Below, piece after piece: positions 3,154 to 34,230 of a stretch of DNA of 64,000 bases (its first letter is position 1; each line of letters begins with the position of its first letter). Source of the stretch: Candidatus Kapaibacterium sp. (lineage in GTDB: Bacteria > Bacteroidota > Ignavibacteria > Kapaibacteriales > UBA2268); contig OZ223197.1 of NCBI GenBank assembly GCA_965140345.1, positions 1,070,726 through 1,134,725 on the forward strand, given 5' to 3'. The notes beneath the pieces are model-generated. The model saw only the letters and a program-made list of their open reading frames with translations. It did no database searches and was not told where the DNA came from. Both the position numbers and the translations under genes were made by a program.

Positions 3154-3159
3154 GTTAAA

Positions 3160-3594: not shown

Positions 3595-3607
3595 CTTATG
3601 TTCCTGA

Positions 3608-4042: not shown

Positions 4043-4060
4043 TTTTTATCCCAATTTTTA

Positions 4061-5620: not shown

Positions 5621-5689
5621 TTCCTCTCCTCAAGAGAAATTGTATTTAAAAAGGAATATATTTCCTATCGATGTTTCTATGTTTGACTG

Positions 5690-13622: not shown

Positions 13623-13690
13623 TCAATTTCACTTATACTTTACGAAAAACAAAAATATTTTTTGACCCTTTTTATAGTTAAGAATTCAAT

Positions 13691-14416: not shown

Positions 14417-14434
14417 CTATTATTTGGAAAGCAA

Positions 14435-15121: not shown

Positions 15122-15162
15122 AAACAGTAACTCAAACTAAATAAGTTAACTGTTGGATATAC

Positions 15163-16692: not shown

Positions 16693-16721
16693 ATTTCCAC
16701 CTAAAATTAACTATATTTGTA

Positions 16722-16729
16722 AATTCTAA
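16722..16729 (+). promoter_or_regulatory. TAtaTTTG (-7-like) motif 23 nt upstream of the PP2C phosphatase gene
   Basis: Matches the TAnnTTTG consensus. Confidence 0.25.
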
Positions 16730-16751
16730 TATATAAAAAGCTACTCAATTA

Positions 16752-18875
16752 ATGCTTGAATATTTTAAAAATAGGGTATCAAATCTAAAAAGCAACTACT
16801 CTTCCTATAGAATAGTAACATTCTTTGCTTTATTGCTTTTTTCTTTTACAAAAATGGCTTTAGATACCACATTCTTCTCTATCAATGAGAATTTCTTTTT
16901 AACATTTGATTCCTGGCATTACAGCTCTGAGATTGTACTTTTTATTACTTTTGTTGCCTATTATTTCACTCTTCCGAAAATAAACAGAAATATTGAACAC
17001 GAACAAATAAATGCTGTATTTTTCAAACGACTGAAAAGTATGTTGTTTCATTTTGGAGTTTATTGGATATTTTCTGTTCTTCTGGGGATTATATCTGATA
17101 TTACACGAGATCCTGATTTATCAATCATCCTACTCTACGATATAAAACTAATATACTCTCTTTTTGTATTGGGAATCCTATGCAAATTTGTTTTAGATTG
17201 GGTTTTATATTTTAGAACATCTTCAACTAAAAAACACCTGGTTTTTATTACTATCAATTTGGTATTAACTTCAATAGGTCTTTTTCTGTCTGAGATAATA
17301 AAATCAGAAAATCTCGATTATATCAATCTAATAAGCTCTTTATTATTAACTGTTTTGCTGATTTCAATATTTGTATTGCCTAAAAAAAATGCGTGGGTAG
17401 CTGCCTTATCTTATAAAAATAAACTTTTACTGATATTTATAATCCTTGCTATTTCATTTTTTATAATACCTGAATTTATGCTGGGAATTATAGGAATGGA
17501 TTTTGGAAGAACAATTTTGTACTTCAAAGCTCCAATATCTAACAGTATGTTAGATATTATCGCAGTATCAGTGCTTGCTTTCTTTTTACGAATAATTGTG
17601 TCTACTCTTGCTGCTTGGCCTACAACAAAAATTGTTGCTAAAAAAAATATAGAATTAGAATCACTTTCAACTTTAAATCGGTTTGTAGTTGAAACTTTAA
17701 ATAAGTCCCCTGATAAAATTATAGGGACAGCTTCCCAAATTGCGCGACAAATGACTAATGCTCATTCGGCTTGGACTGAGATTTATACAGAGAGCTCTAA
17801 AGATATTTCTTATTCTTTCAACATATCTCAAAAGAATCTTGGATATATTAAATTCTATACTCACTTTTCAGAATTTTTTAAATCTTGTAATGATACCACA
17901 TTAGTTGATTCGATTCCTGAGCATGACTATTTATATCCAATAGCAGATACAATTACTTATGCAAAATCGATGATTATTCTGCCTTTATATACGGCACAGG
18001 ATAGACTTGGTACATGTATTCTTTTAAAAGATTCACTTTATGGATTTGATGCAGAAGATATAACTATCTTGAATACTCTCTCTCAGAATCTTTCAATTGC
18101 ATTGCATAATGCAAGTCTAGTCCAGGACTCAATTGAAAAAGAAAAGTATAAAAATGAGATGCTTCTTGCGCAGACTATTCAAAGAAATCTACTACCTAAA
18201 GAAGATCTCTCTACACAAGACTATTCAATAGCAGCTTTTACAGAGCCTGCACAGGAAGTCGGGGGTGATTATTACGATTTAGTATATTTAAAAGATAAAA
18301 CGCCGTGTTTGTTGATTGCTGATGTATCCGGCAAAGGTATGTCTGCAGCTATTATTATGTCTCAGATGAAAGGAGCGGTACAGGCATTAAGTCCACTAAG
18401 CAGTTCAGTCTCTGAGTTACTAAAAAAACTAAATAGTACTCTGTTTGGAACAATTGGCAGAAAGAATTTTATCACTATGGCAGGTTTAGCTTTAAAACCA
18501 GATGGCACTATCTTTTTTGTGAGAGCAGGTCATGCTCCAGTTTTTGTAACGCGTGAAAACAAGACAGTCAAATATATGCCCAAAGGTCTGGGAATAGGCT
18601 TGGTAGGCGCATCTATGTTTGACAAAAATTTAGAAGAAGTAGAGTTGAAACTTAATAAAAACGACAACGTATTACTGATAACTGATGGAATTAACGAAAT
18701 AAGTAACGAAAAAAATCAACAGTTTGGCTACGAACATTTGATTAATATTTTAGAAGAAAAAGAATTGACTTTGGCGAACGATATTAATCGCAAAATTAAA
18801 AAGAAAATTGATTCTTTTTCCACTGATGACGCTTATATTGACGATATGACTGTTATCAGTCTTATATACTGCTAA
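16752..18875 (+). CDS. polytopic membrane sensor with a C-terminal PP2C (SpoIIE/RsbU-family) serine phosphatase
   Basis: About 280 aa of multi-TM N-terminus, a GAF-like middle region, and a C-terminal domain with DVSGKGMSAAIIMSQMKGAV that is typical of SpoIIE-type PP2C. Confidence 0.8.
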   Translation: MLEYFKNRVSNLKSNYSSYRIVTFFALLLFSFTKMALDTTFFSINENFFLTFDSWHYSSEIVLFITFVAYYFTLPKINRNIEHEQINAVFFKRLKSMLFHFGVYWIFSVLLGIISDITRDPDLSIILLYDIKLIYSLFVLGILCKFVLDWVLYFRTSSTKKHLVFITINLVLTSIGLFLSEIIKSENLDYINLISSLLLTVLLISIFVLPKKNAWVAALSYKNKLLLIFIILAISFFIIPEFMLGIIGMDFGRTILYFKAPISNSMLDIIAVSVLAFFLRIIVSTLAAWPTTKIVAKKNIELESLSTLNRFVVETLNKSPDKIIGTASQIARQMTNAHSAWTEIYTESSKDISYSFNISQKNLGYIKFYTHFSEFFKSCNDTTLVDSIPEHDYLYPIADTITYAKSMIILPLYTAQDRLGTCILLKDSLYGFDAEDITILNTLSQNLSIALHNASLVQDSIEKEKYKNEMLLAQTIQRNLLPKEDLSTQDYSIAAFTEPAQEVGGDYYDLVYLKDKTPCLLIADVSGKGMSAAIIMSQMKGAVQALSPLSSSVSELLKKLNSTLFGTIGRKNFITMAGLALKPDGTIFFVRAGHAPVFVTRENKTVKYMPKGLGIGLVGASMFDKNLEEVELKLNKNDNVLLITDGINEISNEKNQQFGYEHLINILEEKELTLANDINRKIKKKIDSFSTDDAYIDDMTVISLIYC

Positions 18876-18960
18876 AAATCGGTATGCTTCTTGATAGAAT
18901 ATAAATTAGATTATGATATTCAATGCTGAAGATCACAATAGTTAACAAAGGAAAAAAAAT

Positions 18961-19341
18961 ATGCCTGCTAATAACAAATTTGGTATTACTAAAAAACAAA
19001 ACGATGGCATAGACTGCTTTTATCTAGAAGGTTATTTAGATGCTCACACTGCGCCACAGCTTGAATCTGCTTTCCAGGAAAGTATAGACAAAGAAAACTA
19101 TAAGATTCTTGTAAATTTCAAAGATCTGGATTACATCAGTAGTGCAGGGTTGGGTGTTTTTATGGCTTTTATTGAAGATATAAGGAATAAAGGCGGAGAC
19201 ATCAAGCTTTCTTCTATGCAGGAAAAAGTTTTTTCCGTGTTCGATTTATTAGGTTTCCCAATGCTTTTTGATATTGAAACGAGTGAAACAGATGCTATTG
19301 ACAAATTCTTATCTCCAAACACACATGACATCAATAAATAA
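18961..19341 (+). CDS. STAS-domain anti-sigma factor antagonist
   Basis: 126 aa with LDYISSAGLGVFMAF, the SpoIIAA/RsbV signature. Confidence 0.8.
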   Translation: MPANNKFGITKKQNDGIDCFYLEGYLDAHTAPQLESAFQESIDKENYKILVNFKDLDYISSAGLGVFMAFIEDIRNKGGDIKLSSMQEKVFSVFDLLGFPMLFDIETSETDAIDKFLSPNTHDINK

Positions 19342-19768
19342 ACATATAGATAATATCTGCGTTAAAGCTGATTTTTCTGAACTTGAAAAGATCAGGGATT
19401 TTGTCTTTATGCATGCTAAAGAATACTATTTTTCTGAAATAGATGCTCAGAAAATCACTTTGGCTGTTGATGAAGCGTGTACAAATCTGATGCGTTATTC
19501 TTATAACTGCAAATGTAACTTCTCTATTTCTATAGAGATTATGATTTCCAACAATGAATTCGTTGTTCAAATTATTGATGAAGGAGAACCTTTTGATCCG
19601 CTTTCAGTCGAATCTCCCGACATGAAGAAATATTTTGCTGAATTTAGAAAGGGCGGTTTAGGTATTCATATTATGCGTAGCGTTATGGATAACATTAATT
19701 ACCAGCCTTCTGAAAAATCCGAAAGAAAAAACGTATTAAAACTAACAAAATTCCTTCCTAACTCTTAA
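19325..19768 (+). CDS. anti-sigma regulatory factor (RsbW/SpoIIAB-type Ser/Thr kinase, HATPase_c)
   Basis: N-box AVDEACTNLMRYSY and G-box GGLGIHIM. The ATG at 19325 was chosen because it gives only a 17-nt overlap with the STAS gene. Confidence 0.72.
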   Translation: MTSINKHIDNICVKADFSELEKIRDFVFMHAKEYYFSEIDAQKITLAVDEACTNLMRYSYNCKCNFSISIEIMISNNEFVVQIIDEGEPFDPLSVESPDMKKYFAEFRKGGLGIHIMRSVMDNINYQPSEKSERKNVLKLTKFLPNS

Positions 19769-19833
19769 TATTTGCAAAATAATTATTATATTATTCCTTC
19801 ATATATCACAATGTAAATTTTGAAGGAAAAACT

Positions 19834-20829
19834 ATGAAAGGTCTTGTTATAGCCGTTTCAGTGACACTGTCATTTATTCTGGGATTTATTCCCAATATAA
19901 ATAAACCTAAACCACTGTGGTGGAAACTACTTACAATTACTACTATTACACTTGCCATTATACTTACTCTTTTTCCTCCTATCGCAGGAAATTTTGCAGA
20001 TTTGAAATTTGTATCAGGATGGGAAGATGGAAAGCATATAAATTTACTTGTAAGTTATGACCGGGCTGAAGATGGGACAGCTATTTTCACAGATGATTAT
20101 GGAGAATCATTCCCTATCGCAAACACAGATAGTTATGGGCTTGAAAAGGGTAATAAATATATTATTAATACCACTTTGGCAGATAATAATTATAAAGCTG
20201 TTGAACTTGTTTCTACTAATCCAATAATGACATATCCTTATATCCCTAACCTGGAAGATAGAACCAAGATTCTAAATTTCCATGTACCTATGGCTTGGAT
20301 TTCTGTTTTGGCTTATTTAATTTCTATGATTTATGCCATTCAGTACCTTAGAACAAAAGATTTAAAATATGATGTACCACTGAGTGCTTCAGCTGCACTT
20401 GGTACTTTGTTTGCTATCTTAGCTACTGTAACAGGTATGCTTTGGGCCAAATTCAACTGGGGAAGCTTTTGGAACTGGGATCCCCGTCAAACATCAATAC
20501 TTATACTTCTATTGATTTACGCAGCGTTCTTCGCTTTGCGTTCTTCTATTGATGTAGCAGAATCAAAAGCGCGACTAAGCTCTGTTTATTCAATTCTAGC
20601 TTTCGTGACAGTTCCGTTTCTTGTGTTCATTTTGCCGCGAATGTCAACCGGACTTCATCCTGGCTCAGCGGATGACACAAATGCCGGACCTCTTGTCAGC
20701 AATCAGGCAGGTATGCTTGATTCCAGTATGCTTTTCAGCTTTGGATTGGCAATGTTCGGATTTTCAATGTTTTTCTTTTGGCTATTAAATTTACAGATAA
20801 GAATTACGAAAAATAGAGGAGAAATATAG
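19834..20829 (+). CDS. ccmC: heme exporter protein CcmC with an unusual N-terminal extension of roughly 120 aa
   Basis: WWD motif WGSFWNWDPRQTS and an HVP motif (NFHVPMAW). The extra N-terminus has two TM helices plus a periplasmic segment. Confidence 0.78.
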   Translation: MKGLVIAVSVTLSFILGFIPNINKPKPLWWKLLTITTITLAIILTLFPPIAGNFADLKFVSGWEDGKHINLLVSYDRAEDGTAIFTDDYGESFPIANTDSYGLEKGNKYIINTTLADNNYKAVELVSTNPIMTYPYIPNLEDRTKILNFHVPMAWISVLAYLISMIYAIQYLRTKDLKYDVPLSASAALGTLFAILATVTGMLWAKFNWGSFWNWDPRQTSILILLLIYAAFFALRSSIDVAESKARLSSVYSILAFVTVPFLVFILPRMSTGLHPGSADDTNAGPLVSNQAGMLDSSMLFSFGLAMFGFSMFFFWLLNLQIRITKNRGEI

Positions 20830-20964
20830 ATGCTGGACTTTTTGCATGATAATTCAATTTTTGTAGTGCTTGGCATTACATTGATAATCTGGACAGGTAT
20901 AGTAACTTATATGATGTCCTTAGATAAAAAAGTAAAGAAGCTTGAAGAGCTTAATGAAGAATAA
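20830..20964 (+). CDS. ccmD: CcmD-like small single-TM protein (44 aa), not in the supplied ORF track
   Basis: ATG directly follows the ccmC stop. Sequence MLDFLHDNSIFVVLGITLIIWTGIVTYMMSLDKKVKKLEELNEE is a TM helix followed by a charged tail. Confidence 0.4.
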   Translation: MLDFLHDNSIFVVLGITLIIWTGIVTYMMSLDKKVKKLEELNEE

Positions 20965-21007
20965 AAAAGAAAGCCGGTGTCATTTTGATGTGATACCGGC
21001 TTTTTTC
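20963..21007. terminator. bidirectional rho-independent terminator between convergent ccmCD and the TlpA-like lipoprotein gene
   Basis: Hairpin agccggtgtca..tgataccggct flanked by an A-run and a T-run. Confidence 0.6.
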
Positions 21008-21013
21008 ATATGC

Positions 21014-22198
21014 TTATTGATTTTCTTTTATTAGTTTAATTAGAGTTTTGTCTAATTCTTTATCGTATCCAGCATGTTTATGTAAAAGTTTACCTTCTTT
21101 ATCAATCACTAATAAAGAAGGATATCCTTCAATATTTAAAAGCTTAGCAACTTCATCTCCATCTACTAAAGTTGGATAACTAACGCCTTTTTCTTTCAAA
21201 AATGCTTTTGGATCAGCACTTTCTTTTTCCCTGCAACTAATACCATAAATATAAGCATTCTCTTTCATATCTTGATAAACGGCTTCCATTTTAGGCATAG
21301 CAACAACACACCAAATACACCAAGTTCCCCAAAAATCTAAAACAACAGGTTTTCCTCTAAGACTTTCTAAACTAACTTCTTTGCCATCGGCATCTTTTAG
21401 AGTAAAGTTAGGAACTACATCTCCAATATTTAATTCGGTGCTTTTTACTTCTTGTTGTTGTTTCTTGTCGTCTTTAGCAAAAAACTCTTCTACTGTTATA
21501 TAATCTTGAGGAATATTTATAACAAAATTAGCGTCATCTATGTCAGGAACAGATTCAATTTTATTTACATATAGATTTTTTTTCTGTACAAGGTGGTCAC
21601 CATTTTTAATAGTAGACCATTCTTCTAATGGGAAACCAGTTTTTTTGGAAATAAACTGATCAGTATAAAAATCCAAATCTAGTTCATCATCATGAGATTT
21701 GTTAGAAATGTGATACACTTCTTCATTGTTGATAGTTGTATCAATTCCCCAAACATAATCATCAAATTTGTCGCTGGAATCAACTGTGGACGAAAAATCT
21801 TCGAAAGTTGCAAAAGGTAGGAAGTTTTTTATTTCTTCTGAATTACGCTGTATCTCCATATTATATTCTTGCGGATTAGTCATCACTTTAAACCACTTAT
21901 CTTTATGATTGACTATTGTAAATTTTTCTCCGTTAAATGCCGCCTCAAGTTCATTATCAATAATTACAAACTTAAAGTCTTTTCCATTTTCTTCCATTTC
22001 AGCTTTTATGGTTTTTGTTTCCGGTTTAGCAGTATTTTCAGAAAAACCTTTAGCCTTTGTGATCTCAGCTTTAATCGCTTTTACAGTTGATCTTGTTTTG
22101 TAAGTAGTTTTTAGCATATCTTTCATTGTAGCAGGTCTCTGCTCAGAACAAGCTGCAAATGCTAGAACCAATAATAGAGTAGCAGTAATTTTTTTCAT
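21014..22198 (-). CDS. lipoprotein with a C-terminal TlpA-like thiol:disulfide oxidoreductase (redoxin) domain
   Basis: Lipobox LAFAAC and a thioredoxin motif FWGTWCIWC. Confidence 0.7.
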   Translation of the reverse strand: MKKITATLLLVLAFAACSEQRPATMKDMLKTTYKTRSTVKAIKAEITKAKGFSENTAKPETKTIKAEMEENGKDFKFVIIDNELEAAFNGEKFTIVNHKDKWFKVMTNPQEYNMEIQRNSEEIKNFLPFATFEDFSSTVDSSDKFDDYVWGIDTTINNEEVYHISNKSHDDELDLDFYTDQFISKKTGFPLEEWSTIKNGDHLVQKKNLYVNKIESVPDIDDANFVINIPQDYITVEEFFAKDDKKQQQEVKSTELNIGDVVPNFTLKDADGKEVSLESLRGKPVVLDFWGTWCIWCVVAMPKMEAVYQDMKENAYIYGISCREKESADPKAFLKEKGVSYPTLVDGDEVAKLLNIEGYPSLLVIDKEGKLLHKHAGYDKELDKTLIKLIKENQ

Positions 22199-22229
22199 TT
22201 TGATCTCAAATATTATATATTAATGTATA

Positions 22230-23543
22230 TTATTTCTTTTTTTGTGCGTTTTCAGCTTTTTTTAGGAACTCTGCAGCCTTCTCTTGATTGCCGGCGAAAC
22301 TATACACAGCAGAAATATTCTTCAGAGTTTTGACAGTCATATCCGACTTAGCTCCAAGTTTCTTTTCAAAGATTGATAATGCTTTATTTAAATAAGTCAA
22401 AGCATAATCGTATTTATGAGTTTTTGCCAGTATGGTTGCTAAATTATTCATAATATAAGCAATTTCAACATCATCATTGCCTAAAGCTTTTTGTTTTGTT
22501 TCGAGTACTTTTAAATAAATCCTTTCAGCTGAAGCTAAGTCCCCTTTTTCCTGGTAAACAGCAGCAAGGTTATTAAACACAGTCGCAATCTTTATGTCAT
22601 TTGTATCACTTACAGCTTGGAATTGCGCAGCTGATTTAACAAAATATTCTTCAGCTTTGTCATATAGCTTTCTTGTTCTGTAAAAATCACCAATATTATT
22701 GAACAGTACAGCAATAGGTTCGTATTTTTCGCCGTGATTTTCTTTATAAATTTTTACAATTGAAAGCATAATACTTTCAAATTTTTTCAAGCTATCCATT
22801 CTTACATAGATTTCACCCACTCTATGCAAATCTTCCACAGTATTCTGGCTGTACTGTCCAAAGTTTTTTACTTTTATCTCAATATTTCTTTCAATCAAAG
22901 CTTTAGCAGCAAACAGTGAATCCTGCTGCATGTAAATATTCGATAAATATGATATAGGTGCTATTAGTGACTGATGCTCTCCGCCATAAGACATACCGCG
23001 GATTCTTATGCAATAAAACAGCATTATTTTTGATTTTTCAACTTCACCTAATTCCTGCAGTAGCATGGCATAATTGAAATAAGTATCAGCAAGACTCAAA
23101 TCTGCCTCTCCCAGAATAACTTTTTTGATACCTATAGATTTTTTGAATAGCTTTTCTGCTTCCTTATACTTACCAAGACCTGTTTTAGTTTTAGCAAGAT
23201 TATCCATAGCAGTTGTGGCTTCACGTGTAGAGTCTTTTTTATTCTGATTGAATGATTCTACTGCCTTTTCAAAGTGTTTTTCAGCATCATTCAGCTCTTC
23301 AATATTTAGATAAGCAACACCTGCCATATTATGTGAACTTCCGGCTCTAATACTCATTATGCCATACTTTTCTTCTGCATATTTTGCAGCTTTTGAAGCG
23401 GCTTGAGACGCGCCTTGAAAGTCCTGATTTCTGAGCATTTCTAAAACATTTTTCATTGACTTTTCCCAAGGATCATCTTCAGCATGTAGATTTACAAAGC
23501 TTAGAAAGCAGGTTAGCAGCAAAATTCCAATCAATTTATTCAT
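22230..23543 (-). CDS. secreted tetratricopeptide-repeat protein
   Basis: Signal peptide and multiple TPR-like repeats (AxxYxxLG..Y..A). Adjacent to the ccm genes, so a CcmI/CycH-like role is possible. Confidence 0.65.
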   Translation of the reverse strand: MNKLIGILLLTCFLSFVNLHAEDDPWEKSMKNVLEMLRNQDFQGASQAASKAAKYAEEKYGIMSIRAGSSHNMAGVAYLNIEELNDAEKHFEKAVESFNQNKKDSTREATTAMDNLAKTKTGLGKYKEAEKLFKKSIGIKKVILGEADLSLADTYFNYAMLLQELGEVEKSKIMLFYCIRIRGMSYGGEHQSLIAPISYLSNIYMQQDSLFAAKALIERNIEIKVKNFGQYSQNTVEDLHRVGEIYVRMDSLKKFESIMLSIVKIYKENHGEKYEPIAVLFNNIGDFYRTRKLYDKAEEYFVKSAAQFQAVSDTNDIKIATVFNNLAAVYQEKGDLASAERIYLKVLETKQKALGNDDVEIAYIMNNLATILAKTHKYDYALTYLNKALSIFEKKLGAKSDMTVKTLKNISAVYSFAGNQEKAAEFLKKAENAQKKK

Positions 23544-23660
23544 CTTATATCCGTTCCTCTGTTAAATTTGCCTAAGTTTAGGCGAAATTGTTTGTTAATG
23601 TATAATTTTTTTTCTTATATTATAACATATTACCCTCTAACAATATAAAAGGTTCTTGTT

Positions 23661-24056
23661 ATGAAAGCCAAATATATTATCACGGCAATAATTGCGCTCG
23701 CATTTGTAGCGCTTGCTTATTCTGCTTTTGACAGCAGTAAAATTGAATATACGGATTTTACTTATGCAAAAAAAACAGGTAATACCGTTCAGGTTACAGG
23801 CTCGTGGGATAAATCTGAAAATTACGATTACAATGCCGAAACCAACACATTCACTTTTACTATGATTGATGAGCAAGCAAATAGCTCAAAAGTAGTTTAC
23901 CACGGTGCAAAACCAAATAACTTTGATATTGCGCCTATGGTAGTAATTAAAGGACAGTTTGAAGATGGTATTTTTATGGCATCAGATATTCTGACTAAGT
24001 GTCCATCAAAGTACGAAGCTGATTTCGAAGAAATCAAGAAAAACGCAAAAGTATAA
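23661..24056 (+). CDS. ccmE: cytochrome c maturation heme chaperone CcmE, CxxxY variant
   Basis: N-terminal TM anchor, OB-fold region VVYHGAKPNNFDIAPMVVIKGQF, and the C-terminal motif TKCPSKY where canonical CcmE has HxxxY. Confidence 0.72.
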   Translation: MKAKYIITAIIALAFVALAYSAFDSSKIEYTDFTYAKKTGNTVQVTGSWDKSENYDYNAETNTFTFTMIDEQANSSKVVYHGAKPNNFDIAPMVVIKGQFEDGIFMASDILTKCPSKYEADFEEIKKNAKV

Positions 24057-24071
24057 CACTAACAGAAAGGA

Positions 24072-26234
24072 ATGCCTATGTTTGGCTCTATACTTATACA
24101 CGGTCTCCTTGGGCTGTCTATAATCACAACTATAATGTACTTCTTAGCTTACAAGAGAGAGAATATTGTTAAAACAGCAAGTGCTTTTTATCATGTTATA
24201 ACTCTGGGAATGATAGTTGCTTCTGCGTATCTTCTTTACAATGTTATGACTCACAATTTCTCTTTTACATATATATGGAGATATTCTTCTACAGAGCTTC
24301 CTAATTTCCTACTTGCAACTACATTTTATGCAGGACAGGAAGGTTCATTTACTCTATGGGCTTTGATGCTCTCAATTATTGGTAGTTTGGTGATTCCTTA
24401 TGTAAGAAAGCATAACTACGAAGCTCCTGTGATGAGTATGTACTCTCTGATACTGGTATTTATATTTCTGATTATGATAAATAAAAGTCCATTTGAATAT
24501 ATTTGGAATTCATTCCCTGACCAAAATATAGAAGTAGGCTTTATGCCTGCAAATGGTAATGGTTTGAATCCTATATTGCAAAACTATTGGAATGTTATTC
24601 ACCCTCCTATTTTATTCTTAGGATTTTCTGCAATGTCTGTGCCTTTTGCTTTTGCATTTGCAGGACTAATTAAACGCGATTATTCTAACTGGATAAAAGT
24701 TTCTATGCCCTGGACTTTATTTGCCACAGGCTTACTTTCTTTAGGTATTATGCTTGGTGGTTTCTGGGCTTATGAAACTCTTGGCTGGGGCGGTTTCTGG
24801 GGATGGGATCCTGTTGAAAATGCATCACTTATTCCTTTGCTAACTGCGATTGCTCTTGTTCACACTATGCTTGTACAAAAACGTACAGGCGGTCTAATAC
24901 GTACTAACTTTATTCTTGCCATAACAAGTTTTGTATTAGTAATTTACTCTACGTTCTTAACTCGAAGTGGAGTATTAGGCGATTCTTCTGTTCACTCTTT
25001 TGGTGATCCGGGGCAGCTTACTTATACTTTGCTTTTAGCATTTTTAGCTTTCTTTACTTTGATCGGTGTTGTTGCATTGCTTATGAGATATTCTGATATA
25101 AGTAAAGTTGCTGGAAAAATGGACTTCCAGATGAGCTCCAGAGAATTTATGCTTTCATTGGGATCTCTGGTAATTCTAGCAATTGCAGCTTTTGTTCTTG
25201 TCGGAACAAGCTGGCCAATAATTCAGGAAATTCTCGGTCAGTCAAAAACTGGTGTTCAGATTTCTATCTATGACAAAGGCTCATTACCACTTACTGCAAT
25301 TGGATTAGTACTTATGGTATTCTCAGTTTTCTTAAACTGGAAAGTGACACCTGCAGAAATCTTAGTGAAAAAAACATGGCTAAGCATAATATTAGCTGCT
25401 GTATTTACTAATATTTTTATTTTGATTGGCTTCAATGAATTCCGTCATATTGCGTTAGGTTTTGCTGCTTTCTTTGCATTATTTACTAACCTGCAATACT
25501 TATTCAAAACAGTAAAAAAATATCCTAGATTAATTGGAGGATATTTATCACACTTTGGATTTGCGCTTTTGATTTTGGGTGTAATTGCTACAGGTGGCTA
25601 TACTGAATCTAAACAAATGACTTTGAAAAAAGATCAAGTTCAGGAATTTGCAGGCTACGAATTTAAATTTATCGGTAAAAATCAAATTGAAAAAGAATTT
25701 AAAGATAGAGAAAAATTCCAATATTTAGTTCAAGTTACAAAGAATGGTGAAAGTGATGTAGCTAAACCAATAATCTACTATTCTGACTTCAATCAGAGAC
25801 AACAGCCTTTCTTGGAACCTGGAATTTTGGAATCATTTTCTGCTGATATTTATCTTTCTCCAAATGTAGCTGACTATAAATACGATATTCCTATTATATC
25901 ATTAGGTAAAGATGACAAAATCGAAGTACCTCTTACAGATAATCTTGAGATGAAGGTGACAGGTTTCGATATGCAGTCAATGATGTCAGGTGATTCCAAT
26001 AATGGTTTACTTCCTTTTGGCGCAATAGTAGAATTTTCAGATGGAGACAATACATTCGTTGATACTCTATATTCAAATTTAGATGCGCAGTCTTTTGTTG
26101 GCGATCCGAACTGGAAAACAATGGAAAAATATGGTGCTGATATTGCTTTAGTACAATTTATTCCTAATATGCAAGAAATGGGCAAATCCCGCGTCGCTTT
26201 TATTTTTGAAGCAAGCCGGGGCAGAAATGCCTGA
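24072..26234 (+). CDS. ccmF: cytochrome c-type biogenesis protein CcmF; the reading frame ends prematurely (apparent +1 frameshift) and the C-terminus continues in 26206..26448
   Basis: WWD motif GWGGFWGWDPVENASL and a polytopic N-terminus. The frame stops at 26234 shortly after a T5 run. Confidence 0.8.
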   Translation: MPMFGSILIHGLLGLSIITTIMYFLAYKRENIVKTASAFYHVITLGMIVASAYLLYNVMTHNFSFTYIWRYSSTELPNFLLATTFYAGQEGSFTLWALMLSIIGSLVIPYVRKHNYEAPVMSMYSLILVFIFLIMINKSPFEYIWNSFPDQNIEVGFMPANGNGLNPILQNYWNVIHPPILFLGFSAMSVPFAFAFAGLIKRDYSNWIKVSMPWTLFATGLLSLGIMLGGFWAYETLGWGGFWGWDPVENASLIPLLTAIALVHTMLVQKRTGGLIRTNFILAITSFVLVIYSTFLTRSGVLGDSSVHSFGDPGQLTYTLLLAFLAFFTLIGVVALLMRYSDISKVAGKMDFQMSSREFMLSLGSLVILAIAAFVLVGTSWPIIQEILGQSKTGVQISIYDKGSLPLTAIGLVLMVFSVFLNWKVTPAEILVKKTWLSIILAAVFTNIFILIGFNEFRHIALGFAAFFALFTNLQYLFKTVKKYPRLIGGYLSHFGFALLILGVIATGGYTESKQMTLKKDQVQEFAGYEFKFIGKNQIEKEFKDREKFQYLVQVTKNGESDVAKPIIYYSDFNQRQQPFLEPGILESFSADIYLSPNVADYKYDIPIISLGKDDKIEVPLTDNLEMKVTGFDMQSMMSGDSNNGLLPFGAIVEFSDGDNTFVDTLYSNLDAQSFVGDPNWKTMEKYGADIALVQFIPNMQEMGKSRVAFIFEASRGRNA

Positions 26235-26448
26235 ACCTGTAGAATACTTTAGCTTTGAAGCTTCAGTAAAACCGCTAATAAATTTGGTTTGGGCAGGTAC
26301 GCTTGCAATCGTGGCAGGTTTCTTCATTGCTATTGGCAAATACACAAAAAATAAAGAAACAAATTTTGAAAAAACAAACTCAAAAGATGTAGAAATCGAA
26401 AATAATAGCAATAATTTAGAAGAAAAGCCGTATATTGCTAGTAAGTAA
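26206..26448 (+). CDS. ccmF: C-terminal fragment of CcmF in the +1 frame (final TM helix)
   Basis: VKPLINLVWAGTLAIVAGFFIAIGKY resembles the conserved CcmF C-terminal helix. The TTG 'start' here is probably not a real initiation site. Confidence 0.5.
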   Translation: MKQAGAEMPEPVEYFSFEASVKPLINLVWAGTLAIVAGFFIAIGKYTKNKETNFEKTNSKDVEIENNSNNLEEKPYIASK

Positions 26449-26471
26449 TATATTATATATCAGGAGAAATC

Positions 26472-27080
26472 ATGTTTTACAAACAACTAATAGCAATTAT
26501 TTTTGCGATGACTTTGGCATTTACCACTGCTTGTAGCAGCGATGCAGATAAAACTCAAACTAAAGATGTAGCAGCTAACTTGAGCGCAGAAGCTCCGGCT
26601 GCAAATACCTCCGTTTTTGTTATGGAAAATTTAAGTACCGGAGAAAATCCTTTACCTGATTTTACATGGCATCAGGACGGCAAAACAATTAAATTTTCTG
26701 ACTATATCAAAGGTAAAACTGTTTTTCTTAACTTCTGGGGAACCTGGTGTCCTCCTTGTAGAGCAGAAATTCCTCATATAGTTGAATTGCAAAAAGAGTA
26801 TAAAGATAAAGATTTTGTAGTGGTTGGCTTTGCATTAGAACGTAACCAAACGGTTTCAGGTGTTCAAAAATTTGTGGACGCTAAAGGAATCAATTACATT
26901 AACTTTTTTGCTTTAGGTTCACTACAAAATACAGCGAAACTTGTTGAGCATTTTGGCGGAGTGCAGGCTGTTCCGACTACTTTCATCTTCAACAGTAAAG
27001 GCGAAAAAGTAGAAACTATAGTTGGCGGAAGAGACTACAAATCGTTTAAAGCATCAATTGAAAAAGCACTGAAAAGCTAA
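26472..27080 (+). CDS. thiol:disulfide interchange protein (CcmG/ResA/TlpA family) with a lipoprotein signal
   Basis: FLNFWGTWCPPCRAEIPH thioredoxin motif; signal peptide with TTAC. Confidence 0.8.
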   Translation: MFYKQLIAIIFAMTLAFTTACSSDADKTQTKDVAANLSAEAPAANTSVFVMENLSTGENPLPDFTWHQDGKTIKFSDYIKGKTVFLNFWGTWCPPCRAEIPHIVELQKEYKDKDFVVVGFALERNQTVSGVQKFVDAKGINYINFFALGSLQNTAKLVEHFGGVQAVPTTFIFNSKGEKVETIVGGRDYKSFKASIEKALKS

Positions 27081-27103
27081 TCAATTTAAAAATACAAAGA
27101 TGT

Positions 27104-27139
27104 AAAAAGGGAGACTTTAGAGTTTCCCTTTTTTTTTTG
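27104..27139. terminator. rho-independent terminator (bidirectional) after the ccmG-like gene
   Basis: Hairpin gggagact-ttag-agtttccc followed by T10. Confidence 0.6.
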
Positions 27140-27171
27140 TGAATGTCAAATATATTATTAGATATATTGAA

Positions 27172-27349
27172 TAGGCTGTCTTGGAAAGTAGAGTAATCTT
27201 TTAAAAAGCCAGACAAAGTGATAAACTTAATCTAAGACAAGTGCAACCGCAAAGGTCACTGAGCTAGCAAAGCGAGTTGAAGTGTAGCTTGCGGTTATTA
27301 TCACAGGTTTTAGTTAGATTATAGTCTAAATATGACTCATAAGACAGCC
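27172..27349. ncRNA. candidate structured ncRNA or structured 3'UTR (GC-rich, nested inverted repeats); identity unknown
   Basis: Perfect 10-bp closing stem (aggctgtctt at 27172-27181 pairing with aagacagcct at 27340-27349). Internal pairs taatctaa/ttagatta and aaccgcaa/ttgcggtt. Local GC is well above the surrounding intergenic DNA. Confidence 0.25.
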
Positions 27350-27373
27350 TCTCTACAGATATGATATTTGTTT

Positions 27374-27886
27374 CTACACTAACATCAGTGCCAGAGTTGT
27401 ACCAAGCCCCGCAATGAGCGAAGTAACAAAGATTATACTTAATGTAGCCATTTTGCTTTCGTAGAGATGCATATATGCATAAAGTCCTATTGTAGGAAGC
27501 AATTCATCACTGTGCTCAGATTCTAACTCGCCAACATTTTTAGTGCTTCTTTTCGCTTTTATCATCGGTCCTTTTCCATTTTGCAGAGTCCATTCCTTTG
27601 CAATCATCCTACCATCTGTCTTGAAATTGTACCTTGTATCCTGATACCAGATTTCTGCATTTTTAAAATTTTGATCAAAACAAATATCTGCAATTATATC
27701 GCCATTTCCGCTCTTGAGTTTTAACTTTTTGCTGAGTAAACCATCTGACTTGAAGAAATAGCTGCTATTCTGAGCTTCGCAGATGCAGCGATAACGATTT
27801 GACATACGGAGAAGTGCAACTTGCTTTTTGGATTGCCCTAGTGAAAGAGTTCTGTCATCGGAATTATAATCCCAGTGATATTTCAT
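27374..27886 (-). CDS. hypothetical protein with a C-terminal TM anchor
   Basis: 170 aa. C-terminal hydrophobic helix LSIIFVTSLIAGLGTTLALMLV. Confidence 0.4.
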   Translation of the reverse strand: MKYHWDYNSDDRTLSLGQSKKQVALLRMSNRYRCICEAQNSSYFFKSDGLLSKKLKLKSGNGDIIADICFDQNFKNAEIWYQDTRYNFKTDGRMIAKEWTLQNGKGPMIKAKRSTKNVGELESEHSDELLPTIGLYAYMHLYESKMATLSIIFVTSLIAGLGTTLALMLV

Positions 27887-28025
27887 TTCTATACTCCCAC
27901 ATTTAATATACTGGAATGTATATATTTTTTATTTCCCCGACAAGTCATTTTTTGTTTATTATATAAAAAAACCACAAGTATTACTACCTGTGGTTCGAAA
28001 GATATATTTTAATAGTCTTTGTTTT

Positions 28026-28676
28026 TTATTCGCCAAATTTCATTAAGTTTTCCATACTGGGAACTTTATTAGGATCAACAAATTTAATCCCTTTAGGTGC
28101 TTCAAATTTTGAATCCGGCACTGATACATCCAATTTGATACTAGTAGCTTCCATTTTAGATTTCATTCCCCAACCGCTACTCTCTGATTTCAAAGTCAGA
28201 TTTTTCCAAACCCAAATTTTGATATCCATACCCATTGTATTCCCTTTCCATATCTCACATTTCTTTCCTGCAACTGTTCCTGTTTCACTTAGTTTTGTAT
28301 ATTCCATTGCTTTTAACATTTCTTTACCAAATTCTGCAGGGTCTATATTTTCTTCAGCCATGGCTACTGCAACTTCATTTTTCATCTTAATACCAGTCTT
28401 TTTATCAAAATCCACAGAAATCATATCATAACCATCTAGTATAACAACTTCATTTTTTTCAGAAGAAAACCCCATAGCTTCTGCACTTGATTTTTCATAA
28501 GTTGCTTCTTTAAAACCATATTCCTTGATGTACTTTGTTTTAGTACCTTTAGAACTACCTGAAAGTTTATATTCTACAATAGCAGATTTAAATTCATATA
28601 ACTTGAATTTATTAGAACCGGCAAACGCTACTGAGAATACAGCAAGCAACAAAAACAACTTTAGCACATTTTTCAT
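28026..28676 (-). CDS. hypothetical secreted protein
   Basis: Signal peptide MKNVLKLFLLLAVFSVAFA. No known domain. Confidence 0.45.
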   Translation of the reverse strand: MKNVLKLFLLLAVFSVAFAGSNKFKLYEFKSAIVEYKLSGSSKGTKTKYIKEYGFKEATYEKSSAEAMGFSSEKNEVVILDGYDMISVDFDKKTGIKMKNEVAVAMAEENIDPAEFGKEMLKAMEYTKLSETGTVAGKKCEIWKGNTMGMDIKIWVWKNLTLKSESSGWGMKSKMEATSIKLDVSVPDSKFEAPKGIKFVDPNKVPSMENLMKFGE

Positions 28677-28746
28677 TTTACTTTAAACTATTTAGTTAAA
28701 CAAATATGATACAATATAATAGAATTTTTATTAATATTTGTTTTTT

Positions 28747-29502
28747 TTACTTCAAACTAAACTTAAATACAAAGAAAAGTTGCTCTTTTTCAGGTTGCAA
28801 ATATAATGCTGTACCAATTGGAAGACTGAAACTATCGGATAGTTTTAAATCCTGATCCAGGGAAATACCGAGATTCACTACCGCCCATTTATCTTCCGGT
28901 ACATCGTAGGTTCTTGTTTTACCTTTAGTAAAGCCGGCATGTACTTTCAATTTGTGACTATCTATAAGAAAAGGATACGCTAATTCGAAATAGACAGATT
29001 TATCCGGATCATTATAGAAGCAATGATCAAATAAAAACTGAATTGGAAATTCTTCAGGTCCTTTGTATTGCAGAGAAATATTATACCAGTGCCCTCCCTG
29101 TTCTACAAATTCTCCTTCTTCATTTTCTCTGCCTTTATCAAAATTGAAATATCCTTTGCCTTCACAAGGATAAAAGAAATCTGTTATAAAAGGAGAAAAT
29201 GTACCAATTGATGTTTCCCAATTATATTTGAGAACCAAATCTACTTCATTGAATTTTACTGTTTCATCATTATAATCATAACCTGATGCAAATGCCTGAG
29301 AGCCCCAAAATTCAAATTCAAAATTATATCCTTTGAAGTTAAATTTGGGCTGGATTGCCGGAGAGTCTCCAACATCCATTGCGCGCCAGTTATAGGCACT
29401 TACAAAATCAACAGCGGAATTTACTTCTACAGCAAAAAGATTAGCAGAAGAGCAGAAAAGAATCGCCAACGCGGCAAGAAGTCTTGTCATGTCAGTACTC
29501 AA
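28747..29502 (-). CDS. hypothetical secreted or outer-membrane protein
   Basis: Signal peptide. Aromatic-rich, beta-rich composition. Confidence 0.45.
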   Translation of the reverse strand: MSTDMTRLLAALAILFCSSANLFAVEVNSAVDFVSAYNWRAMDVGDSPAIQPKFNFKGYNFEFEFWGSQAFASGYDYNDETVKFNEVDLVLKYNWETSIGTFSPFITDFFYPCEGKGYFNFDKGRENEEGEFVEQGGHWYNISLQYKGPEEFPIQFLFDHCFYNDPDKSVYFELAYPFLIDSHKLKVHAGFTKGKTRTYDVPEDKWAVVNLGISLDQDLKLSDSFSLPIGTALYLQPEKEQLFFVFKFSLK

Positions 29503-29641
29503 ATAATATATGGATAAGTTTAAACTATCGAATGCAAATTAGCTCTTTAATTAATACCAAGCTCTTAACAAGATATTAAACCTTTGTAAAGCAATAGCTT
29601 CGAATTATTTAGAAAAATGACTAAGTAAATAATACATTCTA

Positions 29642-29670
29642 TTGACAATTGTGTTATATGTGAATTTATA
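29642..29670 (+). promoter_or_regulatory. sigma-70-like promoter candidate, TTGACA-17-TTTATA
   Basis: TTGACA at 29642-29647 and TTTATA at 29665-29670, about 75 nt upstream of the 29749 gene. Confidence 0.3.
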
Positions 29671-29748
29671 GATACTTGCTAATATACTTTAAATTTTGTG
29701 CTGAAAGTTGTATATTGGCTATAAGAATTAATCAATAAAAGGTGCAAA

Positions 29749-30219
29749 ATGAAAAGAATCATAGTACTTGTAGTAATTGCATTCTCTATAATATTTTCCG
29801 GTAATTTATCCGCTAAAAAGCTAAAAGAGGCTGAAGTGCCTGCCGTTGTAGTTAAAAAATTTAAAAGTATGCACGGTTCAGCAGACAAAATAGAGTACAA
29901 TATTAAAGAAGAAAATGGCAAAGATATGTACCGAATCCGTTTTGAAGAAGAAGAATATGACTACGAATATTTCTTCGAAAAGGACGGAACAATTTATAGA
30001 ATGGATGGCGAAATGCCTATTAATGAGCTTCCTGAAAGAATAAAAAAAATCATAGACAAAAAGTTTGAAGGCGAACAAATCGTAGAAGTAGAAAAAATAA
30101 TTCGCAATTACGATGAAAAAGGCTATCAAATTAAGCTTGTAAAAGGAAATAAAGAGACTAAAGTTGAGTTTGACAGCAAAGACAGAGTTGTAGAAATAAA
30201 CATGAAGTTTAAATACTAG
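29749..30219 (+). CDS. secreted PepSY-like repeat protein
   Basis: Signal peptide and two repeats of the PepSY-like beta-lactamase-inhibitor-like fold (..YEYFFEKDGTIY.. and ..YQIKLVKGNKETKVEFD..). Confidence 0.45.
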   Translation: MKRIIVLVVIAFSIIFSGNLSAKKLKEAEVPAVVVKKFKSMHGSADKIEYNIKEENGKDMYRIRFEEEEYDYEYFFEKDGTIYRMDGEMPINELPERIKKIIDKKFEGEQIVEVEKIIRNYDEKGYQIKLVKGNKETKVEFDSKDRVVEINMKFKY

Positions 30220-30222
30220 AAT

Positions 30223-32448
30223 ATGTCCGAACAAAAAATAGATATTGCAAATAACGAGCTTCAGTTTATCAAAGGCATTGGCCCCAGACGAGCTGAAGCT
30301 TTTATAAAAGAAGGTATTCTTACACCTTTGGATTTGTTATATTATTTTCCTAGAACTTATATAGACAGATCCGGTACCAAGACTTTACAACAACTTAAAA
30401 ATGACCTCAAAAATATCAATAATTTCACTGCTGAAAAAAATCTCTATTTTAATTCTGAATCAACCGCGGTTGCTAAAATAGTTTCAAAAGAGATAAGGGA
30501 ATTCGGCAAAAAAAGGCAAATGCTTTCACTTACAATCAGTGATAATTCCGGTGCAAATGCTAAGATAATATTTTGGAATAGTGTTAAATATTTTGATAAA
30601 ATGTATCAAAGAGGTCAACTTCTTGCAGTAAGCGGAAAGGCAGAATTGGACAGATATAATTTCATTAGTTTTACGCATCCTGATATTGATATAATTGATG
30701 AAGAAGATTCCAAGCTTTATTCAGACGGCGCGATATTACCAAAATATAAGCTTTCTGAGCCACTCAGGAAAGCCGGCATAACGATGAAATTGATGCGTAA
30801 CATCATCGCTACTTGCTTAAAAAAATATGCTTCAAGTGTGGTAGAATCTTTTCCTCCTGCACTGATGAGCGAGTTTCAATTTCCGCCAAAAGCACATGCT
30901 ATATTTAACCTTCATTTCCCTAGAAATAAAGATCTACTCGAACGCTCCAAGTTAAGGATTAAGTTTGAAGAACTCTTCCTATTTCAGCTCTTTTTGAATC
31001 TAAAAAGAGATAAGATTCGATCTGAAGAACAAGGTGTTAAAGTAAAACCTAAAAGCCAGTCCGCAAGAAAATTATATGATATTTTACCTTTTGATTTAAC
31101 ACCAGATCAGAAAAAAGTTTTACGTGAAATTGCGTCCGACATGGAAGCCGGTGTTGCAATGAATAGACTTTTGCAGGGAGATGTTGGATCCGGAAAAACT
31201 ATTGTTGCGATTTTAAGTATGCTTATGGCAATTGATTCCGGTTTACAAGTTGCTTTTATGGCTCCTACTGAAATTCTTGCAGAACAACACTTCCATAGTA
31301 TAAAAAACTTTCTTCAGGATTTAGATTTAAATGTAGTTCAGCTTGTAGGCGGGCAAAAAGCACGAATGCGCAGAGATGTGTTGGAAAAAATAGAAACCGG
31401 ATATGCAAATATTATAGTTGGAACTCACGCATTATTTCAAAGCGAAATCAATTATAATAAACTGGGCTTGGTGATAATAGATGAGCAGCATAGATTTGGA
31501 GTTATGCAAAGAGCCGATCTGATAAAATTAGCTAAAAAATCATTTAATGACAACTCCATTGCTCCTCATATATTAGTGATGACAGCCACCCCTATCCCCA
31601 GAACTTTGACTATGACGGCTTATGGAGATTTGGACGTCTCAATTATAAAATCTAAGCCAAAAAATAGAAAACCAATCTTGACTAAAGTAGAATTTGAAAG
31701 TAATCACGATAAAGTTTTTGATTTTGTAAGAAGTGAAGTTAAACAAGGACGACAAGCTTTTATAGTTTTTCCATTTGTAGAAAAGTCTGAAAAAATTGAA
31801 GAAGTGAAATCTGCAACTGAGTACTATGAACCGCTTCAGGCAGTCTTCCCTGAATTTAAATTGGGACTACTTCATGGCCAGATGTTCTGGTACGAAAAAG
31901 AAGAAGCAATGCAAAACTTTCTAAATAAAGAATATGATATTTTAGTTGCTACAACAGTGATAGAAGTGGGTATTGATATACCAAATGCCAGTGTTATGGT
32001 TATAGAAAATGCAGAAAGATTTGGTTTGTCTCAATTGCATCAGCTGAGAGGCAGAGTTGGCAGAGGCGGTGAACAGTCATATTGTATTCTTATGACAAAA
32101 GACAATTACAAGTTTCAGCTAAATAAAAAAGAGCAGGCTGAAAACGCAAAATCTGCTGCTATAATCAGATTGAAAACTATGGCAGAAACTACGGACGGTT
32201 TTAAAATATCAGAAGTTGATCTGCAGCTCAGAGGTCCGGGTGATATTCTAGGAACAAAACAGGCAGGTCTCCCCGACTTTAAATATGCTGATTTAGTAAA
32301 TGACGGCGACATTATGGAGATAGCAAAAAAGATGGCAATTAAAATAATTGCAGAAGATCCACATCTTAGAAGCCAGGATAATAGACTTTTAAGAGCAGAG
32401 ATGTCCAGAAATTACTTCTCTGATTCTAACTTTTTTGATATTGCTTAA
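30223..32448 (+). CDS. recG: ATP-dependent DNA helicase RecG
   Basis: Walker A DVGSGKT, DEQH box, and motifs VMTATPIPRTL and HQLRGRVGRG; N-terminal wedge domain. Confidence 0.92.
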   Translation: MSEQKIDIANNELQFIKGIGPRRAEAFIKEGILTPLDLLYYFPRTYIDRSGTKTLQQLKNDLKNINNFTAEKNLYFNSESTAVAKIVSKEIREFGKKRQMLSLTISDNSGANAKIIFWNSVKYFDKMYQRGQLLAVSGKAELDRYNFISFTHPDIDIIDEEDSKLYSDGAILPKYKLSEPLRKAGITMKLMRNIIATCLKKYASSVVESFPPALMSEFQFPPKAHAIFNLHFPRNKDLLERSKLRIKFEELFLFQLFLNLKRDKIRSEEQGVKVKPKSQSARKLYDILPFDLTPDQKKVLREIASDMEAGVAMNRLLQGDVGSGKTIVAILSMLMAIDSGLQVAFMAPTEILAEQHFHSIKNFLQDLDLNVVQLVGGQKARMRRDVLEKIETGYANIIVGTHALFQSEINYNKLGLVIIDEQHRFGVMQRADLIKLAKKSFNDNSIAPHILVMTATPIPRTLTMTAYGDLDVSIIKSKPKNRKPILTKVEFESNHDKVFDFVRSEVKQGRQAFIVFPFVEKSEKIEEVKSATEYYEPLQAVFPEFKLGLLHGQMFWYEKEEAMQNFLNKEYDILVATTVIEVGIDIPNASVMVIENAERFGLSQLHQLRGRVGRGGEQSYCILMTKDNYKFQLNKKEQAENAKSAAIIRLKTMAETTDGFKISEVDLQLRGPGDILGTKQAGLPDFKYADLVNDGDIMEIAKKMAIKIIAEDPHLRSQDNRLLRAEMSRNYFSDSNFFDIA

Positions 32449-32468
32449 TTTGATTTATAGGATATATT

Positions 32469-33059
32469 ATGAGAAACTTCTGGGACGAAAGGTTTGATAC
32501 AGAAGAATTAATTTACGGAACTAATCCAAATAAGTTCTTGAAATTATATATAGATCACAACTCTCCTTCAAACATTCTACTTCCGGGCGAAGGCGAAGGA
32601 CGAAACGCAATTTACGCTGCCAAACAAGGATGGAATGTTACTGCACATGATGGTAGCGAAGTGGCAAAAAACAAAGCCCTATCACTGGCAAAAAAAGAAG
32701 GTCTAAATTTTAATTACATAGTTAGTGATATTCTTGACTTAAAACTATCTCAACAATTCGATGCTATTGGATTGATATTTATGCACTTACCTTCTTCAAT
32801 ACGAAGGGATGCGCACAGACTATTGATTGATTACTTAGCACCCGGAGGAAGTATTTTCATGGAAATGTTTTCTAAAGAACAAATCAACAACGAAACTGGC
32901 GGACCTAAAAATATTGATATGCTATACAGTCTGGATGATTTAAAAGAAGATTTCAAATCACTAAATATAGTTTCAGCAGAAGAGATAATTACAACTCTTG
33001 ATGAAGGTGATCATCACCAGGGTAAAGCGAATATCATCAGATTGATAGCTACAAAATAA
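32469..33059 (+). CDS. class I SAM-dependent methyltransferase
   Basis: LLPGEGEGRNAIYAAKQGWNVTAHDGS is a SAM-binding motif I. Confidence 0.7.
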   Translation: MRNFWDERFDTEELIYGTNPNKFLKLYIDHNSPSNILLPGEGEGRNAIYAAKQGWNVTAHDGSEVAKNKALSLAKKEGLNFNYIVSDILDLKLSQQFDAIGLIFMHLPSSIRRDAHRLLIDYLAPGGSIFMEMFSKEQINNETGGPKNIDMLYSLDDLKEDFKSLNIVSAEEIITTLDEGDHHQGKANIIRLIATK

Positions 33060-34230
33060 TTCTGAATGTAGAACCATTATTTTCTTTAGAATCTAATTCA
33101 ATTTTGCCTCCATGCTTTTCTATAAACTCGCGGCACAAGATTAAGCCCAGACCGGTACCTTTTTCCATATTGGTTCCGGGACGTGTAAATTGTTTATCAA
33201 ACTTAAATAGATTATCAATTTGATTCTGAGACATGCCAATTCCTGTATCCTTAACTTCAATTATAGCTTTGTCAACATCATTAAAGGCTCTTATAAAGAC
33301 TTTTCCGTTTTCAGGTGTAAACTTAAGAGCATTAGAGACAAAATTCCTTAGAACTGTGTGTATCATGTTATAGTCAGCAAGAATAACTACGTCCTCTTTG
33401 ATTTCGCAACTTAGCTCAATATTTTTATTCTTCGCGACCTGTTTATTAAGATCAACCATGCTTTTTAAAACTTCCTTCAAGAACACATTTTGCTTCTCAA
33501 AAGGGATTTGCCCCATCTGAGCTCTTGACCAAAACAGTAGATTTTCCAACAAGTTATACAGATTCTTTGAAGAATCTTTCATTTCAGTTATAAATTCAGT
33601 TATCTCGCGTAAAGTTAAATCTTCAAAGGTATCTACGAGGACTTGAGTTAATTGTCTGAATGCTCCAAGCGGATTCTTTAAATCATGAGCAATAATAGAA
33701 AAGAACTTATCTTTTGCGGCATTAGATTCTTGCAGCTTCTTTTCCTTTTCTATCAGTAGTGCTTCAGCTTTCTTTCTTTCTGCGATTTCTAGTTGAAGCT
33801 GTTCATTCTTTTCTTTAATTGACTTGTTTATCTTTTTTTCGTGTGAAATGAATCTGATATAAAGTTGAAGTAATCTTATTAACTCCTGGTCTTTGAATGG
33901 CTTAGTCAGATAGTCCATAGCGCCTACATCTAATCCTGCCTGCATCAATTCTTTTTTTGGATCAGATCCGGTCATTAAAATAATTGGTATAGTCGAAGTT
34001 AATTCCTGCTGTTTCATAAGCTTTGCAGTCTTAAATCCATCAATTTCAGGCATAAAGATATCCATAAGTACTATATCAATTTTGTGGTTCCCCAACAAAC
34101 GAATAGCATCTTTGCTGGAAGGTGCTTCAAAAACTATAACGTCCATGTTCTTATTTATAATACTCGCTACTTTTTTTATGAGAGTAGGAGAATCATCAAC
34201 CACTAAAACTGTATATTTCCCGTTTTCCAT
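33049..34230 (-). CDS. response-regulator receiver / histidine kinase fusion (REC-HisKA-HATPase)
   Basis: N-terminal REC (VLVVDD..DIFMPEIDGF), H-box FFSIIAHDLKNPL, G-box KGTGLGL. Paralog of 58383..59522. Confidence 0.8.
   Translation of the reverse strand: MENGKYTVLVVDDSPTLIKKVASIINKNMDVIVFEAPSSKDAIRLLGNHKIDIVLMDIFMPEIDGFKTAKLMKQQELTSTIPIILMTGSDPKKELMQAGLDVGAMDYLTKPFKDQELIRLLQLYIRFISHEKKINKSIKEKNEQLQLEIAERKKAEALLIEKEKKLQESNAAKDKFFSIIAHDLKNPLGAFRQLTQVLVDTFEDLTLREITEFITEMKDSSKNLYNLLENLLFWSRAQMGQIPFEKQNVFLKEVLKSMVDLNKQVAKNKNIELSCEIKEDVVILADYNMIHTVLRNFVSNALKFTPENGKVFIRAFNDVDKAIIEVKDTGIGMSQNQIDNLFKFDKQFTRPGTNMEKGTGLGLILCREFIEKHGGKIELDSKENNGSTFRIIL

Follow-up and report, generated by a model that had tools for sequence, protein, structure and literature searches.

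CcmF occurs naturally in split form in Methanosarcina acetivorans and in plant mitochondria. In M. acetivorans, deletion of the C-terminal piece leaves a faint holo-cytochrome c band, and this piece has been described as "important but not vital" (PMC9084895). The ccmF of plant mitochondria is divided into two or three genes, namely ccmFN1, ccmFN2, and ccmFC (PMC8321540, PMC7139807). A bacterial ccmF that likewise appears in two pieces is found in the window, by which we mean the whole 64-kb stretch of DNA analyzed here, where its reading frame changes at a run of five thymines. We favor a homopolymer error in the assembly consensus over a recent mutation in the strain as the origin of this break. 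Under either of these surviving explanations, the interruption is an ordinary homopolymer indel and not a new mechanism or system.

The 5′ part of ccmF is a forward-strand ORF of 720 aa (24072..26234) that starts at ATG 24072; gene callers begin at ATG 24078 and report a 718-aa protein (P0002). This ORF ends ..AFIFEASRGRNA, also written ..VAFIFEASRGRNA, at a premature TGA (26232..26234, +) that is met in frame 0 past an extra T. The frameshift site is the T5 homopolymer ATTTTTG (26203..26207, +), one T above the T4 run of six close relatives (L001 to L006). Frame 0 reads GCT TTT ATT TTT GAA GCA AGC CGG GGC AGA AAT GCC TGA across the break, and the last nine residues of the ORF, FEASRGRNA, are out-of-frame. 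The +1 frame is open from ~26150 to a TAA at 26446-26448 and encodes ..EYFSFEASVKPLINLVWAGTLAIVAGFFIAIGKY.. / ..LKQAGAEMPEPVEYFSFEASVKPLINLVWAGTLAIVAGFFIAIGKYTKNKE..; an open frame of ~100 codons in DNA of 33% GC has a chance probability of ~4e-4. The 3′ part of ccmF in this frame (26208..26448, +), called as an 80-aa ORF with a TTG start from 26206 (P0122), encodes the last periplasmic beta-strand, TM15, and the cytoplasmic tail, with the same protein sequence as in L004, a second genome of the species. Within it lies the last transmembrane helix, LINLVWAGTLAIVAGFFIAIG (26275..26337, +), in which V, W, G, and G positions are invariant across the family. Deleting a single T from the window gives ..AFILKQAGAEMPEPVEYFSFEAS.., identical to the 789-aa CcmF of L004. 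The original prediction, that the CcmF frame shifts by +1 at the T5 run and is restored by one T fewer, is thus borne out by a T4 genome that encodes the fused protein, and the sequence also agrees with its placement of the C-terminal helix just downstream in the +1 frame. Read from the sequence, the break comes down to a T4 run lengthened by one T, and it is known from this contig alone. An 87-aa ORF with a TTG start on the opposite strand (26148..26411, −) lies wholly within the ccmF coding sequence, over the frameshift region; it is without support and is to be treated as spurious.

A doubled FxFEAS sequence, the copies 49 nt apart, had also been noted at the break. The copies are FIFEAS in frame 0 (26199-26216) and FSFEAS in the +1 frame (26248-26265). 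Their spacing holds, and the first exists only by virtue of the shift: the same bases read FILKQA in L004, while FSFEAS is a genuine conserved strand. The two share the 8-mer TTTGAAGC and no more, and this 8-mer is present in the unshifted L004 and absent in more distant relatives. A duplication scar was considered and rejected on these grounds, and the doubling is a coincidence of out-of-frame reading.

Several features identify the gene as a member of the CcmF family. Firstly, the 720-aa ORF matches both Pfam domains of the family, PF01578 (Cytochrom_C_asm) at 2e-26 (93.4 bits, gathering cut-off 29.9) and PF16327 (CcmF_C) at 3.5e-27 (95.9 bits, gathering cut-off 28.7), the latter scoring 103 bits in the intact same-species form. 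Secondly, the ORF contains the WWD motif, WGGFWGWDPVEN. Thirdly, histidines 175, 262, 306, and 492 (P0121 numbering) are invariant across a 32-sequence alignment; judging by motif context, we take them to be P-His1, TM-His1, P-His2, and TM-His2 of the E. coli protein. Finally, the 80-aa +1 ORF, which matches the CcmF_C profile weakly on its own (E = 0.087), aligns through residues 15-43 with positions 292-320 of 323, the end of the profile. The C-terminal transmembrane helix (..KP...LVW.G..) and the WWD domain do not share one polypeptide in the window, the helix being in the +1 frame. The NCBIfam models TIGR00353 (264 bits vs a curated cut-off of 569) and TIGR03145 (285 bits vs 927) score below their cut-offs. 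The intact CcmF of L004 misses these cut-offs too; the low scores reflect a divergent subfamily, and the frameshift is not their cause. The gene belongs to a Kapabacteria/Ignavibacteria-like CcmF subfamily with an enlarged periplasmic domain.

Hydropathy analysis predicts 15 transmembrane segments, the last at residues 734-752, with a periplasmic domain of ~230 aa between TM14 and this segment. An AlphaFold2 model of P0003, a relative at 84% identity and not the broken product of the window, has a pLDDT of 84.9 and a pTM of 0.78. In this model, the periplasmic domain is all-beta; one strand spans 705-712 (..VAFILKEA..), the last spans 721-732 (..VEYFSFEASVKP..), and a helix follows at 734-756. 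Foldseek matches the model to Thermus thermophilus CcmF (PDB 6ZMQ) with E = 1e-21 and a TM-score of 0.85, normalised to the target. A sequence search of the PDB aligned 6ZMQ to residues 12-558 only, so the equivalence of the C-terminal helix rests on the end of the Pfam profile together with the fold match. Judged by the model, the extra T would sit inside beta-strand 705-712. The truncated product retains the first 14 transmembrane helices, the WWD motif, the four conserved histidines, and most of the beta domain in the periplasm. It is predicted to be missing half of one strand, all of the last one, TM15, and the cytoplasmic tail. The TM15 segment carries the invariant residues P732, V737, W738, G740, and G747.

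Relatives of the gene are uniformly unbroken at this position. The fused translation, used as a query, returned 7,985 homologs, the best 120 of which are 747-843 aa long except P0002 (718 aa, 99% identical), which is the truncated product of the window itself and lies on a 1.23-Mb contig. The C-terminal helix is in the same ORF in 119 of these best 120, the exception being again that product. The nearest species representatives are MAGs at 84-88% identity, and their proteins, P0001, P0003, and P0004, are encoded by single ORFs of 775-788 aa that read ..AFILKE(A/T)G..MP.PVEYFSFEAS(V/I)KPLIN.. across the site. Of 84 related loci, two run off their contigs; the WWD motif and the C-terminal helix share one ORF in all 82 evaluable loci. 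The possibility that relatives end where the 720-aa ORF does and supply the helix from a separate small gene had been raised with the original prediction, and none of the 82 loci has this arrangement. In a cluster look-up, the truncated form is on one contig only. The exact T4/T5 pattern gave no match in genome_contigs or metagenome_contigs, and neither the exact truncated CcmF nor the downstream TlpA-like product has a record in the contig index.

The same-species contig L004 (ENA ERZ21831251, ctg13067l, 3.65 Mb) was reached solely through its identical CcmE. Over a 20.4-kb alignment (window 13664..34066), the two genomes are 97.4% identical, or ~99.2% when two divergent patches are set aside, and they are 99.2% identical across ccmF. 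L004 has GCTTTTATTTTGAAGC (T4) at the site where the window has GCTTTTATTTTTGAAGC (T5), with no other difference for ~80 nt on each side, and its CcmF of 789 aa matches that of the window letter for letter after the one-T deletion. Within ccmF, 18 of 2370 nt differ, comprising 16 synonymous sites and one codon. The two substitutions that lie 3′ of the shift change no amino acid once the frame is restored, which means that the frameshift is either very recent or not real. ATTTTG (T4) is also found in five further close relatives (L001, L002, L003, L005, and L006), and each of the six T4 relatives encodes one uninterrupted CcmF of 775-789 aa. One of the five is a MAG with a contig name of the form k141_... 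(cov 12.87), a name that suggests a short-read MEGAHIT assembly.

The genes around ccmF are intact, including ccmC, ccmD-alt, ccmE, and two thioredoxin genes. Directly upstream is ccmE (131 aa, 23661..24056, +), and directly downstream is a gene for a TlpA/CcmG-like thioredoxin lipoprotein (202 aa, 26472..27080, +). The CcmE protein carries LTKCPSKYE, a CxxxY variant of the heme-binding motif vs the canonical HxxxY, and the variant is kept in all four relatives translated (L001-L004). This CxxxY form is known from archaea and from certain bacteria, Desulfovibrio among them (PMC9084895). A ccmH gene was not recognised in the ccm cluster, and together with the CxxxY CcmE this may indicate a streamlined System I variant in the Kapabacteria/Ignavibacteria-like lineage. 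The ccmC-like gene (19783..20829, +) is long, at about 331-349 aa, and the CcmC model covers residues 160-341 only, indicating an N-terminal extension of ~160 aa. A small ORF just 3′ of it ends at ~20965, where L004 has a 44-aa CcmD_alt (PF20077) gene. No CxxCH ORFs were found in the 64-kb window. The two hyper-divergent patches between the window and L004 (~21000..22200 and ~28000..28700) are 83-85% identical against the 99.2% background; they correspond to the non-thioredoxin part of a 394-aa TlpA-like lipoprotein and to a 216-aa secreted protein, and look like recombination or diversifying selection on exported proteins. Elsewhere in the window, a Na+-translocating decarboxylase cluster (2011..5629, −) is complete, with carboxyltransferase, OAD gamma, biotin carrier, and OAD beta genes; it is unrelated to the ccmF break and shows that neighboring genes are intact.

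The fifth T is probably a homopolymer error that arose when long metagenomic reads were assembled into a consensus. This preference weighs how often long-read assemblies typically retain indels against how often conserved single-copy genes acquire real frameshifts. The extra T at 26203-26207 would then be an error of homopolymer length that makes an intact gene look like a truncated CcmF of 720 aa and an orphan ORF of 80 aa; it would be absent from the DNA of the organism, and the real gene would, with the same modest probability, be an ordinary intact ccmF of ~789 aa. Several observations support this reading. T5 vs T4, a single-base homopolymer change, is the sole difference from L004 in its immediate surroundings; ccmF shows no sign of decay and lies in an intact ccm neighborhood; and the gene is uninterrupted in every evaluable locus. 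The gene is also of importance to the cell. In addition, ccmF is the sole CcmF-type heme lyase gene seen in the ccm cluster, which makes a dominant population lacking it seem unlikely a priori. The source contig is 1.23 Mb long, and sister contigs of 3.65 and 3.83 Mb have names such as ctg13067l and ctg38543c, a ctgNNNNNl/c pattern that we take to be that of metaMDBG. Metagenome contigs of megabase size with names of this kind point to long-read assembly, presumably for the window contig as well. Errors in metaMDBG contigs are "mostly homopolymers", and their identity to references is ">99.99% in most cases" (PMC11392814), a figure compatible with a single error in 64 kb.

Other observations weigh against a consensus error. 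T4 is a short homopolymer, among the least error-prone of runs. The coding sequence of the window contains 332 runs of five, 128 of six, 49 of seven, and nine of eight. None of the runs of six to eight breaks a gene, and this indicates that the assembly is generally accurate. No other broken gene was found in the 20.4-kb alignment with L004 or in the 40 ORFs outside it, and every ORF with a Pfam annotation elsewhere in the window spans its whole profile. The remaining simple indels that separate the window from L004 (18950, 20963, 27129, and 27185) are all intergenic, a pattern more in keeping with real variation that selection has sifted than with errors scattered at random in the consensus. 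These are G2/G3 at 18950, A6/A5 at 20963, T10/T8 at 27129, where a T tract resembling a terminator follows the tlpA-like gene, and A3/A2 at 27185; they could be either real polymorphisms or further consensus noise.

That the single-T insertion is genuine and very recent, a product of replication slippage in this strain or population, is possible but less probable. The resulting CcmF would lack TM15 and the last portion of the periplasmic beta domain. Cytochrome c maturation could then be impaired, with ccmF on its way to becoming a pseudogene, or the cell could tolerate the truncated or split protein. The intactness of every other gene in 64 kb, despite ~1,440 other coding homopolymer runs of at least four, and the confinement of indels relative to L004 to intergenic DNA are what a real mutation in an accurate assembly would predict. 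The known catalytic residues (WWD and the four histidines) all lie upstream of the break, and the natural splits of M. acetivorans and plant mitochondria offer a precedent for CcmF in pieces. Against this, the break is common to no relative, secondary decay is absent both from ccmF and from the rest of the ccm cluster, and the truncated protein would, according to the AlphaFold2 model, lack the edge of the beta domain and the invariant helix motif. A damaged heme lyase as the population consensus would also be unexpected in a lineage whose ccm cluster is under purifying selection.

In a special case of a genuine insertion, a C-terminal piece of 73-80 aa might be translated on its own, for instance through re-initiation at an ATG that overlaps the frame-0 stop. 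This +1-frame ATG (26227..26229, +) encodes a Met conserved in intact relatives and lies 3 nt 5′ of the frame-0 TGA in ATGCCTGA; should the frameshift be genuine, translation might restart here to give a 73-aa peptide. The re-initiation idea takes its sole argument from the ATGCCTGA overlap. It is quite unlikely that the insertion is both real and tolerated and gives a two-piece heme lyase, with a 720-aa catalytic core and a 73-aa strand/TM15 peptide made by termination-reinitiation at ATGCCTGA (26227-26234). If true, this would be a freshly born bacterial ccmF fission, like the fixed splits of Methanosarcina and plant mitochondria. Assignment to a naturally split type of ccmF was tried and rejected, no relative being split at the position seen in the window.

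Programmed recoding or phase variation, through ribosomal +1 frameshifting, transcriptional slippage, or an on/off T run, is very improbable. In favor of recoding, the sequence around the shift, TTTTATTTTTG, is rich in T, and the frame downstream of it has been preserved perfectly. However, a shift is seen in none of the 82 related loci, and the same-species L004 has T4. The site reads GCU UUU AUU UUU GAA, without an in-frame stop, a rare codon, or an upstream SD-like element, and re-pairing of the tRNA, from AUU to UUU or from UUU to UUG, would be unfavorable. RNA folding gives z = -1.19, with 24 of 200 shuffles folding as well, and an Rfam search of the site returned no match. Transcriptional slippage and phase variation are efficient at runs of ~7-9 or more, well above T5. 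Accordingly, the slippage-prone site that had been put forward as an option fares poorly: the run is only T5, it is not conserved, and it comes with no signals. Phase-variable homopolymer tracts are typically of seven or more bases and vary in length among strains, and a phase-variable contingency locus was dismissed, the tract (T5 in the window, T4 in six relatives) being too short.

The consequences of the break are mainly for annotation. The 718/720-aa and 80-aa ORFs are best annotated as one ccmF with a single-base homopolymer discrepancy; the pair represents neither a short CcmF next to a hypothetical protein nor evidence that cytochrome c maturation has been lost. If T5 is real, the locus would amount to a natural experiment on whether covalent attachment of the last strand and helix is required for CcmF, a question of modest interest to those who specialize in cytochrome c biogenesis.

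Comparison with known systems places the locus as follows. With System I CcmF (T. thermophilus CcmF, PDB 6ZMQ), the protein shares both Pfam domains, the WWD motif, the four histidines, 15 predicted transmembrane helices, and ccmE, ccmC, and thioredoxin neighbors. It differs in that its subfamily has an enlarged beta domain (~230 aa) in the periplasm, between TM14 and TM15, and in that the last strand and TM15 are out of frame in the window. The split CcmF proteins, M. acetivorans ccmF1/ccmF2 and plant ccmFN(1/2)/ccmFC, resemble the window in that function would be spread over more than one polypeptide and the catalytic residues are in the N-terminal piece (PMC9084895, PMC8321540, PMC7139807). 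Those splits are conserved, fall at other positions, and have their own expression signals for each piece, whereas the split in the window is on one contig only and would cut off just ~80 residues. A +1 shift would be needed for the full-length protein here as in the programmed frameshifting of prfB (RF2), but the window lacks the conserved shift, the CUU-UGA-like site, the upstream SD, and the regulatory logic of that system. The remaining comparison is with homopolymer errors in long-read assemblies: although the run here is short (4 to 5 bases) and has no second such event beside it in 64 kb, it shares with them a one-base length change in an otherwise perfectly conserved gene on a metagenome contig of megabase size.
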